Sequence record: OR515477.1
DNA: 64,000 bases
Direction: 5' to 3' (one strand)
Source of the DNA: Escherichia phage Es2
The position numbers and the translations under genes are program-made. The stretch's first letter is position 1. Each line of letters opens with the position of its first letter. Positions 9,123 to 12,636 of this stretch are shown in pieces. Below the pieces are notes generated by a model. That model was not told the origin of the DNA and ran no database searches. It worked only from the letters and a program-made list of their open reading frames with translations.

Positions 9123-9307
9123 TGGAAACACTTTTTCTTTTAATGCTCGTAGGTTCGTTAGTAGTTATATTAGCACTCCTATTAATCTGTAATATTCTTA
9201 ATAATAAGAATTTAGGACTAAAGTGTGAGAACCAAATCCTTAATCGTGAACTTGAGCAATATAACCTAGCAGCCCATAAACTATTAGACAAACTGGAGAA
9301 TAAATAA
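9122..9307 (+). CDS. small membrane-anchored coiled-coil protein
   Basis: 61 aa; same architecture as the preceding ORF. Confidence 0.35.
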   Translation: METLFLLMLVGSLVVILALLLICNILNNKNLGLKCENQILNRELEQYNLAAHKLLDKLENK

Positions 9308-9906
9308 TGTTCACACAACAACCTATTCAAGTAGTACCAGACCATGAACTGAACACATGGGATTATAGCTTTAAAGATTTAACTGCTACTGTACAATTCA
9401 AATCTATGAAGCTAACATTTGCACACACTGACCTTAGAGCATGTAAAGATCTTGAAGGTAAGCTAGAAGATGCTCGTAAGATTTTTGGCAAGGCTCGCAT
9501 CCCGGCTGATAACCTGATTAATGCACTGATCGATGCAGGATACAAACTCGTGAAGGCTGAGGTTAACCGTCCTAGTACTCCAGTGACTATTAGAGATCCG
9601 TGGCAATCAGGGCCAATCGCAATGCTAAATAAATCATCGGATTTGCACAATGTTCCATGTGGCGGTACGCTGTCGTCTAATCAATCCTATCGAGTTGGGG
9701 AAGATTATGGGCCTTCTATACAGTTGAAACATACTCAAGAAGCTCTTGAGTCTGACATGAAAAGCGTAGCACCGGGGAACTCTGGAGTTTCTAGGAATTC
9801 TGTCTATACTGTTCATTTAAACAATCCTGGTAATCATGGAAGTTTAGAGGATGCTATTATGGAGGCGTTGGGAGCTGTCATTAATGAAGATAAGAGAGGT
9901 AATTAA
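9307..9906 (+). CDS. hypothetical early protein
   Basis: 199 aa ORF; ATGA overlap with upstream gene. Confidence 0.45.
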   Translation: MFTQQPIQVVPDHELNTWDYSFKDLTATVQFKSMKLTFAHTDLRACKDLEGKLEDARKIFGKARIPADNLINALIDAGYKLVKAEVNRPSTPVTIRDPWQSGPIAMLNKSSDLHNVPCGGTLSSNQSYRVGEDYGPSIQLKHTQEALESDMKSVAPGNSGVSRNSVYTVHLNNPGNHGSLEDAIMEALGAVINEDKRGN

Positions 9907-10253
9907 TGATATTTGGTAAAACAAAAATAGCCCCTGCTGGGGAAAATTTAATTACTCTTAGCCTCTACTATAAGGATGAAAATGTAGAAATAGAAACATT
10001 AGAGTATGTTCTTATAAATACTAATAAGCCTAAAATAGGAGAGTTACTTGGTATAATCTCTAATATCTCTGATAGGGAAGATATTCCAAGTATAACACCA
10101 AAGAATATAGCTCACTTAGCACAACAATTAGGAATCTTGTGGTATAAAGTAGATCTTCCAGCTAAAGAAAGAACCAAAGGAACCTTTGCAGAGATCGCAA
10201 GAAAACCTAAGTCAGAAAAGAAAGAAACAGGGGAGCAAGCGTCTGATATATGA
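9906..10253 (+). CDS. hypothetical early protein
   Basis: 115 aa ORF. Confidence 0.4.
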   Translation: MIFGKTKIAPAGENLITLSLYYKDENVEIETLEYVLINTNKPKIGELLGIISNISDREDIPSITPKNIAHLAQQLGILWYKVDLPAKERTKGTFAEIARKPKSEKKETGEQASDI

Positions 10254-10963
10254 TTAAAGAAGCCGAAAAATTAAAACGTCTCATCCAGCTAGCGCGGGGT
10301 GCTACACAAAAGAGTCTTTCCCAGCTAACTAATGAAGAAAAATATGCAGTAATGTTTTTAGGAGATCATTATCCTGCTAGGTGGGATAAAGGTAAGATCA
10401 AGTATGATCGTGATGCAAAACAAGTTGTTTGGTCAGGCTCATATGTAGAAGTGAATAAAGCATTAAAGGCTTTAGATCCTGAAGCAAAAGGTTTCTCTTC
10501 TAATGCTATTCATATTCTAATTGATGAAGATCTCCCAAGATTTAAGGAAGCATCATTTAAAGAAGCATTAGCTAGTGAAGATCTTATTCCTTTTAAACAC
10601 GGTAAGTATGCACATCTTCCACCACTAGAAAAAGAGAAACCTACTCTAGTTAAAGATGAAGTTTATCGTGGGATTGGCACAATGCTAGCGAGTTTGACTG
10701 TAGCTCTCCATAAAGATCTAGAGTTAACGCCCCTAGAAAACGCTGTGCATTTCATGTGCCATAAGTACGAGGATACATTTAAAGAGCTATGTAAGTCGCT
10801 AGGAATGCCAAGTTACACGATATTAAACTATGCTCCTGAATATACTAGAGCAGCTCGTGGAACTATGGATTACGATGATACAGGATCCACTGCTTCCTAT
10901 TTAGCAACTTATATCTACTTCGCATCCTTAGGTATCAAACTCAAATCCAAGAAGGAGGAATAA
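10250..10963 (+). CDS. hypothetical early protein
   Basis: 237 aa ORF, last gene before the repeat region. Confidence 0.45.
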   Translation: MIKEAEKLKRLIQLARGATQKSLSQLTNEEKYAVMFLGDHYPARWDKGKIKYDRDAKQVVWSGSYVEVNKALKALDPEAKGFSSNAIHILIDEDLPRFKEASFKEALASEDLIPFKHGKYAHLPPLEKEKPTLVKDEVYRGIGTMLASLTVALHKDLELTPLENAVHFMCHKYEDTFKELCKSLGMPSYTILNYAPEYTRAARGTMDYDDTGSTASYLATYIYFASLGIKLKSKKEE

Positions 10964-10980
10964 AAGTTAACAAAAAGTTC

Positions 10981-11010
10981 TTGCATTCTCATACCCAAAC
11001 ATGTTATAAT
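10981..11010 (+). promoter_or_regulatory. sigma70-type promoter upstream of non-coding transcript
   Basis: TTGCAT, 17 bp spacer, TATAAT. Confidence 0.45.
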
Positions 11011-11017
11011 AATCTCA

Positions 11018-11185
11018 TAGATTAACAACTACTCTAGTTGATTAACTCTAGGGGCGATGATTATTACACGAATGTCTCGTATAGCTTGCGGCCTAGCAAC
11101 AGCGGTATGACGGCATGAGTACTCACGTAATTAATCACGCGCCCACAGGAGAGACTCTCATGAAATTGGGGGTCTCTTTTTCTTT
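11018..11185 (+). ncRNA. candidate small structured RNA (about 165 nt)
   Basis: Bracketed by the promoter at 10981-11010 and a hairpin plus T-tract terminator at 11148-11185; long-range helix GGGGCG/TGATTA with TAATCA/CGCCC; only a 17-codon ORF with weak SD. Confidence 0.3.
11148..11185 (+). terminator. rho-independent terminator
   Basis: AGAGAC...GTCTCT stem followed by TTTTTCTTT. Confidence 0.45.
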
Positions 11186-11269
11186 ATATTATTTAAATAT
11201 TTTTAATGGCAATATCTGTGTTCAAGATGATACACCTGTTGCCGCTCATCTGCTAGGATGGCACAACAC

Positions 11270-11560
11270 TTTCTTCTAGACTCCTAAGTTTCTAGGAATA
11301 GTTGAGCACTAACTCTAGAGTTTACATTAAACTTTAAATCTGTTTCTCTAGTCAACTCAGGCGGTTTTCATATTCCTAGAAACTCTAGCAATAGGCGGTT
11401 AATACAGGGCGGTTTTAGGGAGGGCGGTTATTTCTAGAAGACATTTTTTGAAAACACATTTCTAGAAATTACTGTCGTATTTGCACACTGCATTTCTAGA
11501 AATTTATGGTCGGATTTGCACAAACGCCTAAGTTTTTAGGAACATATAATCTCTTGAAAA
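11270..11560. repeat. TTCTAGAA palindrome cluster and CCTAAGTTTYTAGGA repeats
   Basis: At least 4 copies of ATTTCTAGAA(A) and 4 copies of the ctRAGTTTYTAGRA element. Confidence 0.6.
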
Positions 11561-12080
11561 TGGCAGCATTATTTCGGGCCGAAGGCCCGTGATTGCCTGA
11601 GTTTTTAGAGCCACAAGAATTTTCACTTGTCAAGCTATTTTGCCCCATTTAGCAAATAAAATTTTACTTTATCTCCTCTAATCTCAAATTAACCCAAATC
11701 TTCTCAACTCTTCCCCAAAATACCCGCAAATCAGGTGCTCCGCACCAAACATGCGCCTCTCCCACAGTTCCCCCAAAATTTCTCTCGCTCTCTCAACTTC
11801 TCCCCAAACATACACAATCACACACCCTCCAATCGAAGCCACAAAAATCTTGTCGGATTCGCACATCTTAATCCTAGAAAAACCGTGTCGGATTTGCACA
11901 TACCCCACAGGATTCGAACGCAGTTCGAGATTGCTGGAGTTTTTAGGAAAATTCATTGTCGGATTCGCACACTATAAAAATTTTTCGGGTCGGATTTGCA
12001 CACTACCAAAAATTGTCGGATTCGCACATACACGCCCGCACGTAACACCCGTGGAGCAATGTCGGATTTGCACAAAAGCG
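11470..12080. repeat. dispersed 14-mer repeat GTCGGATT(T/C)GCACA, about 8 copies
   Basis: Copies near 11476, 11508, 11852, 11886, 11958, 11988, 12013 and 12058 with irregular spacing. Confidence 0.65.
11690..11830. repeat. C/A-rich low-complexity tract with CCCCAAAA-type repeats
   Basis: Strong strand compositional bias; repeated tCCCCAAAa units. Confidence 0.5.
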
Positions 12081-12099
12081 CAGGGCAATTGCCCTGCGC

Positions 12100-12310
12100 T
12101 AAATGAGAATAAAAATAAGAATCATTCTCATTTAGAAAGCGGAATGAGAATGATAATAATTCGCATTTAGAAAGCGAAATGAGAATCAATCTCATTTAAG
12201 AACGGAAACGAAAATTATTCAGGAAGTGAAACGATTCTCATTTAGAAAGTGGAATGATTCTCATTTAGAAAGTGGAATGCAAATGATAATGATTCGCATT
12301 TAAGAATGGA
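12100..12310. repeat. tandem array of ATTCTCATTTAGAAAG(Y)GGAATGA units with embedded inverted repeats
   Basis: About 5 direct repeat units plus AAATGAGAAT/ATTCTCATTT palindromic cores. Confidence 0.65.
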
Positions 12311-12333
12311 AGTGAGAAACACTGTTATTTAAG

Positions 12334-12415
12334 TTATCCACAGACTTATCAACAGCACGATTTGACTTGACAAAATTCTAGCCATTTTGAGGCGTTATCA
12401 ACAGACTTATCAACA
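12334..12415. promoter_or_regulatory. cluster of DnaA-box-like sites
   Basis: TTATCCACA (12334-12342) matches the DnaA box consensus TTATNCACA; TTATCAACA at 12346, 12395 and 12407. Confidence 0.45.
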
Positions 12416-12423
12416 GCTTATCC

Positions 12424-12443
12424 TACTGTATAAATATACAGTA
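12424..12443. promoter_or_regulatory. LexA (SOS) box-like palindrome
   Basis: TACTGTATAAATATACAGTA, CTGT-N8-ACAG, 18 of 20 match to TACTGTATATATATACAGTA. Confidence 0.45.
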
Positions 12444-12636
12444 TTCCTATGCAGTGAATAATTCTAATATACAGCTAAAACGCTCTCAAACGCATTCTAA
12501 CGCGTTTAATTTTGGTGGGGATACTAAAACACGGGCAAAATTGGAGGAGGCTTAGAAATTAGTTAGCTCGCTAACGATCACACAAGGCGACACGTAACAT
12601 CCTAACCATTAGCAGGCTAACCATCGCGGGCGCGGT

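Follow-up and report, generated by a model that had tools for sequence, protein, structure and literature searches.

What lies between the last early genes of a T5-like phage and the repeat-rich DNA beside its left terminal repeat? T5 has served as a model phage for about seventy years, and textbooks cover its two-step DNA injection and its temporal gene classes. In the window (the whole 64,000-nucleotide stretch of DNA analysed here), a sequence-only reading had proposed at this place a small structured RNA that has its own promoter and does not encode a protein. Our analysis showed that the element is very probably a real, unannotated non-coding RNA gene of the Markadamsvirinae (T5-like) phages. 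The conservation of the promoter, the folds of the individual alleles, the strand bias, the covariation and the tests of open reading frames all agreed with the earlier proposal.

Positions 10900-11300 of the window shared 99.0-99.5% identity with two Tequintavirus phages, VSe12 of Salmonella and HdH2 of Escherichia, and gave partial matches in 438 T5-like records; judged by this similarity, the window is a Tequintavirus genome. Its orientation was the reverse of the standard T5 map. Upstream of the RNA cassette were the last genes of the leftward early operon, the counterparts of HdH2 gp021-gp019:

9307-9906, plus strand: upstream early ORF
9906-10253, plus strand: upstream early ORF
10250-10963, plus strand: last early ORF

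The stop codon of the last early ORF ended at 10963, leaving 17 nt to the -35 element of the RNA promoter, and the repeat-rich non-coding region started at about 11270, so that the element was indeed located at the border of the early genes and the repeat region, as first supposed. Projection from annotated relatives placed the terminal-repeat boundary at about 11565-11610 of the window, the boundary of phage MM-1 corresponding to about 11565. The cassette, which points toward the left terminal repeat, was situated in unique DNA 400-600 bp beyond the boundary of this repeat, and the pre-early genes past the cassette were convergent to it. It was single-copy, also in the HdH2 record of full virion length (120,120 bp). 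In T5 (NC_005859), where the left terminal repeat ends at 10219 and the last early gene, T5.018, ends at 10936, the slot of the cassette was between T5.018 and the terminal repeat, and homology to T5 itself picked up again at window position 11221, about position 10608 of NC_005859.

The order in which T5 DNA is injected during two-step transfer is established. From its position, the T5 map and this injection order, the RNA gene would be the first transcription unit on the second-step-transfer DNA. The slot was without any annotation in the three T5 reference records, and a conserved RNA gene with a near-perfect promoter, placed between the first-step-transfer region and the early genes and absent from all three, would be a new player in the transition from pre-early to early expression, and possibly also in replication or packaging at the repeat boundary. 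No small RNA of T5 or Tequintavirus was found in the literature searched, in which the T5 region was described merely as a long non-coding or untranslated region (PMC10644984; bioRxiv 10.1101/866236).

Transcription of the element is attributed to an extended -10 promoter, which consisted of the following parts:

10964-10980, plus strand: A/T-rich stretch AAAGTTAACAAAAAGTTC, from the stop codon of the last early ORF to the -35 element
10981-10986, plus strand: -35 element TTGCAT
11002-11010, plus strand: extended -10 element TGTTATAAT, with TG at 11002-11003 and TATAAT at 11005-11010, 18 nt after the -35 element
11017, plus strand: predicted transcription start at the A of CTCATAG, 7 nt downstream of the -10 element

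TTGCAT and TATAAT had been read before as a promoter with a 17-nt spacer; both hexamers were in place, but the spacer was 18 nt and ended in TG. TTGCAT matched TTGACA at only three of six positions, which is why the promoter was not listed in the consensus scan. The start was predicted from the spacing and from known T5 promoters, of which the classical ones start at the A of TCATA, and it would fall near 10,845 on the opposite strand in the coordinates of T5 NC_005859. The A/T-rich stretch at 10964-10980 may serve as an UP-like element, and a AAACGTTAACAAAAT-like block upstream of the -35 element was kept in the A, B and C cassettes, which are named after their alleles as listed below.

The promoter was compared in about thirty distinct upstream sequences. 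At the same position, the relatives contained TTGACA-17/18-TGTTATAAT, for which the promoter scan gave 12/12 with TG in EH3 and Seabear and 11/12 with TG in T5. The -35 element across the relatives was TTGACA, TTGACG or TTGCAT, mostly one of the first two, and DT57C also contained TTGCAT. The extended -10 element TGTTATAAT was invariant in the A, B and C cassettes, and was represented by TGTTATCAT in the T5 type and by TGTTACAAT in phiR2-01. The spacer of 17-18 nt occurred in at least seven unrelated sequence versions, while the -35 and extended -10 elements were kept. By this selective conservation of the hexamers against a free spacer the promoter is functional, and a conserved -35/extended -10 pair around a variable spacer is the pattern of a sigma-70 promoter belonging to an independent small RNA gene. 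The TTGCAT version was common to the A1 cassette and the A2 cassette of DT57C; by comparison of the cassettes, the promoter block recombines independently of the allele of the long hairpin H2.

The minimum-free-energy fold of 11017-11190 had an energy of -61.3 kcal/mol (z = -5.86), and none of 200 dinucleotide shuffles was as good. The allele of the window, A1, contained three hairpins:

11018-11050, plus strand: hairpin H1, a 5' stem-loop around a CUC loop, extended in A1, from fold and covariation
11051-11144, plus strand: hairpin H2, one long unbranched bulged hairpin of 94 nt and 34 pairs in allele A1
11147-11185, plus strand: hairpin H3, the intrinsic terminator with its U-tract, which includes the family-wide G5 run at 11168-11172

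The long-range helix of the sequence-only reading, in which GGGGCG/TGATTA pairs with TAATCA/CGCCC, was present in this fold, and H2 held both of its parts (GGGGCG/CGCCC and UGAUUA/UAAUCA). The hairpin with a T-tract that had been taken for a terminator was called at 11147-11180; its stem had 14 pairs, its loop had a size of 6, and TCTTTATATT came after it. A terminator is annotated at the place of H3 in the HdH2 record. In the mechanism that we propose, the host sigma-70 RNA polymerase would start at about 11017 from the extended -10 promoter (10981-11010) and, in A1, would stop at the intrinsic terminator (11147-11185), which would give a transcript of about 169 nt with three hairpins, both ends being predicted. 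RNA-seq data of the Tequintavirus Bas33, published with an evaluation gene by gene according to the annotation, are publicly deposited (ENA PRJEB101990; PMC13250531). The main polymorphism inside allele A1, which was otherwise identical, was the length of the C-run that closes the 3' side of H2 (11142-11146): CCC-A in the window, CCCCC in HdH2 and CCCCCC in VSe12.

A different view of the interval, which we regard as highly improbable, is that the early operon simply ends there with its 3' untranslated region and terminator, or that the interval encodes a micro-peptide from one of two short frames, the 17-codon ORF or the ORF at 11160. With the upstream stop codon and the -35 element only 17 nt apart, the operon transcripts must cross the cassette, and small CDSs are annotated here in several GenBank records. 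The near-consensus promoter, however, was conserved, and T5 had a separate hairpin before the promoter. The first of the two frames was located inside H2 and was judged non-coding:

11057-11110, plus strand: 17-codon ORF MIITRMSRIACGLATAV, with ATG at 11057 and TGA at 11108-11110

This frame, initiated with MIIT, had 17 codons in A1, 35 in A2, 25 in A3 and 11 in A4 (A4 by eye); beyond the fourth residue these frames had nothing in common, and the B, C and T5 types contained no such frame, in line with the earlier statement that the interval had no convincing ORF. The second frame started at ATG 11160 in the terminator loop, where AGGAG (11147-11151), 8 nt before the ATG, is in favor of translation, but its length by eye was 39 codons in the window, 8 in A2, A4 and C, 1 in A3 and 18 in T5, and its register relative to the G5 run differed between the alleles. 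A coding frame conserved in the relatives, the finding named beforehand as contrary to an RNA gene, was looked for in nine alleles with a six-frame coding test, and no ORF was conserved on either strand; the minus-strand ORFs of 21-45 codons, mostly with GTG or TTG starts, were unrelated between the alleles.

Small hypothetical CDSs are annotated over the RNA gene, on either strand, in many GenBank records, and they were inconsistent between the alleles:

L002, 3262-3381: small CDS over the RNA gene
L129, 489-629: small CDS over the RNA gene
L130, 459-599: small CDS over the RNA gene
L132, 455-595: small CDS over the RNA gene
L005, 1727-1852: small CDS over the RNA gene
L135, 420-814: small CDS over the RNA gene
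L136, 417-653: small CDS over the RNA gene

These CDSs are probably spurious, and an ncRNA feature should replace them in the records.

For comparison across the family, the conserved block that starts at 11221 was used as the anchor, and the 300-450 nt upstream of it were taken from phages in GenBank and from contigs of IMG/VR and of metagenomes. In this slot, every T5-like locus fetched, T5 included, contained a cassette with one common design: a near-consensus sigma-70 promoter, a small 5' H1, a long H2 and a 3' hairpin with an invariant G5 run, which was followed by very A/T-rich DNA across the family. H2 occurred as at least ten discrete alleles, among which were the following:

Allele A1: the window, VSe12 and HdH2
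Allele A2: DT57C
Allele A3: VEc33
Allele A4: SE7 and MM-1
Allele B: Seabear
Allele C: H8, 9-29 and EH3
Alleles T5a and T5b: T5a is the allele of T5
Diverged H2 form: Yersinia phage phiR2-01
Further H2 type: AKFV33

The major H2 types were 41-56% identical to each other in pairwise optimal global alignments. With a concatenated query of eight reference H2 alleles, 391 records were found, each at least 90% identical to one of the alleles, out of about 445 T5-like records that contained the neighbouring conserved block. The identity of at least 90% held across two genera, Tequintavirus and Epseptimavirus, whereas the nearby T5.019-like protein went down to 54-62% identity in the more distant records. 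AKFV33 differed from all eight references, and by this measure further alleles exist. A profile HMM of the T5-type H2 did not detect the allele of the window. One metagenome scan and two IMG/VR scans gave only the types known from the first IMG/VR scan and the GenBank loci, and the new H2 types of phiR2-01 and AKFV33 came from GenBank phage records. The allele pattern is unusual: alleles of discrete sequence have a conserved shape, and each of them is near-identical across two genera. Allele swaps offer a ready-made experimental handle.

The genes beside the cassette differed too. With the A, B and C alleles, the upstream neighbour was a 237-aa phrog_8993 protein (window 10250-10963); with T5, TrudiGerster and AKFV33, it was a T5.018-like protein (294 aa in T5, phrog_8583; L003, 2437-3321), to which the neighbour in phiR2-01 was assigned by position. 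No Pfam, PHROG-function or PDB lead was obtained for either the phrog_8993 or the phrog_8583 protein. The tracking of the RNA superclass by the type of the upstream gene could be simple linkage or functional pairing. In DT57C, an extra gene annotated as a homing endonuclease was located between the last early gene and the RNA promoter (L004, 1158-1514), and Kenya-K18 contained a 357-nt hypothetical CDS at the same site (L128, 357-713). The DNA just upstream of the RNA promoter appears to be an insertion hot spot, with the RNA cassette staying intact.

Structural analysis showed that the form of H2 was kept among alleles whose sequences could not be aligned. The folds of nine alleles had z-scores of -4.0 to -7.0, and that of AKFV33 had a z-score of -5.1. 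H2 was a single unbranched hairpin in all ten alleles; it contained 94-149 nt and 34-53 pairs in nine of them, and the fold of AKFV33 was of the same form. MAFFT and RNAalifold did not align the helices across the major types, and the cross-type evidence therefore comes from folding each allele independently. Within types, the covariation across T5-like genomes that had been suggested as a check was observed, as compensatory changes and changes with G-U intermediates in a small number of events. In H1, with its unambiguously aligned flanks, three of the eight pairs were changed on both sides among A1, A2 and A4, and the covariation score was above all of 500 shuffles. In the T5 type, 99.8% of the cells were paired, compared with about 40% when the partners were slid by 1-3 columns; three pairs were changed on both sides (UA/CG, AU/UA and AU/GC), three more were changed via G-U, and one cell was broken. 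The independent compensatory events were few because the alleles are few and internally almost invariant. For these predicted structures, the independent refolding of unalignable alleles is a stronger argument than the covariation.

The same folds bear on the question of whether the inverted repeat acts as RNA or as DNA. As a DNA-level palindrome, it would form a cruciform, a protein-binding inverted repeat or a single-strand hairpin for replication, nicking or terminal-repeat processing, and the promoter would be incidental. This long inverted repeat does adjoin a region dense in repeats and palindromes, and ACTCTAG words are common to the cassette and the nearby repeats. However, the fold of the plus strand was more stable than that of the reverse complement in all nine alleles tested, by 2-16 kcal/mol. 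In addition, the variable positions went via G-U pairs, which are A-C mismatches on the other strand; for this reason the 3' hairpin of the A and C alleles, with G-U pairs in its CUCUCAU/AUGGGGG stem, is strand-specific. Together with the selective keeping of the promoter hexamers beside a varying spacer, these observations make a palindrome acting as DNA very unlikely.

Position, promoter strength and the G5 run were conserved family-wide, as were the layout of three hairpins and the unbranched, bulged shape of H2, and no single-stranded segment was conserved across the A/B/C and T5-type superclasses. Since the shape of H2 was kept and no single-stranded seed was conserved, we infer an RNA that is recognised by its shape. 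Such a product would presumably be abundant and stable and act in trans, and its likeliest role would be to bind, as a platform or decoy, a protein of the host or phage with affinity for double-stranded or structured RNA. This mechanism, drawn solely from the conservation pattern, is put forward tentatively as one possible function of the product; for the whole statement, the non-coding RNA gene together with the platform or decoy mechanism, we consider the chances about even. Searches of Rfam, the 64-kb window and the E. coli genomes brought up no known RNA homologous to it, no target and no protein partner. The discrete alleles would reflect either the incompatibility of stems in hybrids or real specificity types.

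Antisense pairing seems less likely than a platform or decoy. A base-pairing small RNA would depend on Hfq or ProQ and regulate host or phage mRNAs early in second-step transfer, and the layout of the cassette, with its own promoter, structured body, 3' hairpin and U-tail, is the typical enterobacterial one; the RNA has a short single-stranded 5' end and linkers, and it would be expressed from early-entering DNA. Nevertheless, besides the missing conservation of any single-stranded segment between the superclasses, the complementarity to the 64-kb window was 11 nt at most, blastn against 5,426 E. coli genomes gave no match by similarity or complementarity, and the helices lock up most of the RNA. 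We therefore consider a base-pairing function unlikely.

The RNA was also compared with known RNA classes. The proposed Rfam scan was carried out with Rfam 15 on the window (E-values up to 10) and on five allele loci (T5 type, B, C, A2/A3 and A4), and no family was found in the cassette. The sole match touching the element, Plasmodium RUF6-5, reached 19.5 bits against a gathering score of 70 and was attributed to chance. Within Rfam and the literature searched, the RNA belongs to no described family, and its allelic structure is unusual. Blastn, nhmmer and a 24-nt word from the promoter and leader detected no paralogue in the window. A tRNA or tmRNA was rejected because ARAGORN found 0 genes in 10500-12600. 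A 6S RNA was rejected as well: Rfam gave no match, and the folds had only small bulges, their largest loop was the apical one, and a large central bubble was absent. For a retron ncRNA (msr-msd), the only likeness was the long hairpin resembling msd; the 5' end paired with the segment just before H2 and not with the 3' end, and no reverse transcriptase gene was annotated among the flanking genes. An antisense RNA of a type I toxin-antitoxin system was excluded in the same way, with no hydrophobic toxin ORF conserved opposite the RNA and no relation between the minus-strand ORFs of different alleles.

Downstream of the cassette, the most conserved stretch of the region was found:

11221-11300, no strand assigned: conserved block beginning with GTTCAAGATGATACACCTGTTGCCGCTCATCTGCTAGGATGGCACAACAC, 87-100% identical in the fetched loci, including those with unalignable cassettes

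This block of about 80 bp was located about 35-50 nt downstream of the cassette and contained an inverted repeat, TGTTGCC and GGCACAACA separated by 16 nt. It is probably a separate cis element; at the border of the repeat it may serve to bind a protein or be related to the terminase. A pairing between the apical GCGAYAGG-like motif of the RNA and CCTGTTGC in the block was considered and rejected, since in a shuffle test the ungapped score was significant for A3 only (p = 0.037) and not in the other ten cassettes, and the variants of the block did not co-vary with the RNA type.

The conserved block gives weight to a further explanation, that the cassette is a cis-acting transcription unit. Transcription into the conserved DNA at the repeat boundary would then prime or activate replication, or act in concatemer processing or packaging, and the folded RNA would act during transcription, for example as an antiterminator or primer fold. 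The fixed position of the cassette upstream of the block and 400-600 bp from the repeat boundary, the invariant G5 run followed by very A/T-rich DNA, and the clustered repeats of the adjoining region are all in keeping with this, as are the DnaA boxes that Davison described in the neighbouring region, in an arrangement reminiscent of oriC (bioRxiv 10.1101/866236). Room for a cis role is also left by the 3' ends of the cassettes, most of which are without a canonical terminator: none was called in the T5, B and C cassettes, where the G5 hairpin was followed by an interrupted U-rich tract that was variable in sequence even within type C. The canonical terminator is specific to the A1 allele, and the transcripts of the T5, B and C types may extend further, or may obtain their 3' ends by some other form of termination or processing. 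In A1, however, the strong 14-pair terminator with its U-tract should release the RNA before the conserved block, and priming leaves unexplained why an unbranched hairpin of 34-53 pairs is conserved in unalignable alleles. In the literature searched, neither an origin nor a packaging signal of T5 had been mapped to this place. Taking both sides together, we consider a purely cis-acting unit unlikely, to the same degree as a base-pairing RNA.

Several other elements were observed in the DNA around the RNA gene. GGCGGTT occurred four times at 11360-11429 (8 copies in the whole window versus 3.2 expected) and TTCTAGAA three times at 11432-11501; the short-word clusters at 11300-11520 are probably the direct repeats of Davison in repeat region 3. 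ACTCTAG occurred seven times within 10643-11388, out of 18 copies in 64 kb, and two of these copies were inside the RNA gene. The palindrome TCTAGAGTTAACGCCCCTAGA at 10717-10737, within the last early ORF, gave a terminator-like call on the minus strand, and its lower strand contained the words AACTCTAGA and TCTAGGGGCG, as found before H2; the words common to this palindrome and the RNA could be due to chance or represent a shared protein-binding word. At 12474-12507, an overlapping pair of terminator-like hairpins on both strands is probably the bidirectional terminator that ends the convergent pre-early operon and matches the terminator annotated in T5 at 9275-9296. Sub-threshold Rfam matches at 12071-12206 to SprD (26 bits, E = 0.012), PrrF, LhrC and RAGATH-17 were far below the gathering scores and most likely represent terminator-like hairpins and repeats.

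The function of small RNAs from virulent phages is mostly unknown. The species C and D RNAs of T4 and the putative small RNAs of Pseudomonas phage PAK_P3 (PMC4933390) are, like the T5-like RNA, short and stable-looking, transcribed from their own promoters and without an ORF, in lytic phages. In the Rfam scans, no sequence or model similarity was found between these RNAs and the T5-like RNA. The T5-like RNA differs from them in its fixed site at the terminal-repeat border and in its discrete hairpin alleles, for which we know of no comparable report in T4 or PAK_P3.

The pRNA of the phi29 family is about 170 nt long and is encoded near the genome end under a strong early promoter, and its secondary structure is kept although its sequence diverges. 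The T5-like RNA has the size, the near-end position, the strong promoter and the structural conservation despite divergence in common with it. The phi29 pRNA, however, has a three-way junction, its molecules can interact through complementary loops, and the genome that it serves is protein-primed and has a phi29-type motor, whereas the T5-like RNA is an unbranched hairpin in which no loop-loop complementarity was seen, and T5 uses a terminase. With one hairpin loop and no branch in H2 in all ten alleles, and thus no three-way junction, a phi29-type pRNA was rejected. We know of no report of an RNA in the packaging machinery of T5.

A strong promoter with a structured transcript of 70-550 nt beside a cis site, as observed here, is also found in ColE1 RNA II, T4 oriF/oriG, T7 phiOR, the 6S RNA of lambda PR'-tR' and HK022 put, and the G-rich segment of the T5-like cassette followed by A/T-rich DNA is reminiscent of R-loop-stabilising sites. 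The cassette differs from these origin, primer and promoter-proximal transcripts in having no origin, no Q- or nut-like element and no downstream gene, and the A1 allele ends in an efficient-looking terminator.

The working analogy for the platform or decoy mechanism is provided by adenovirus VA RNA I and the EBERs of EBV, which are abundant RNAs of about 160-170 nt with a long imperfect hairpin, recognised by shape by host double-stranded-RNA-binding proteins. They are eukaryotic polymerase III transcripts and not homologous to the T5-like RNA, and the resemblance is architectural only. By this analogy, H2 would be a VA RNA-like decoy or inhibitor against a host factor that recognises structured RNA, with the alleles as specificity types; this specific version of the mechanism we hold to be improbable. 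The targets of such a decoy may include an RNA-sensing or RNA-templated defence system, RNase III, or a chaperone of the ProQ or Hfq type, and the decoy would fire from its consensus promoter the moment the second-step DNA enters. An arms race, or the need to match a phage-encoded partner, would maintain its alleles, which are internally invariant yet mutually unalignable. If true, the T5-like RNA would be a rare anti-host RNA with allelic specificities in a classical virulent coliphage.
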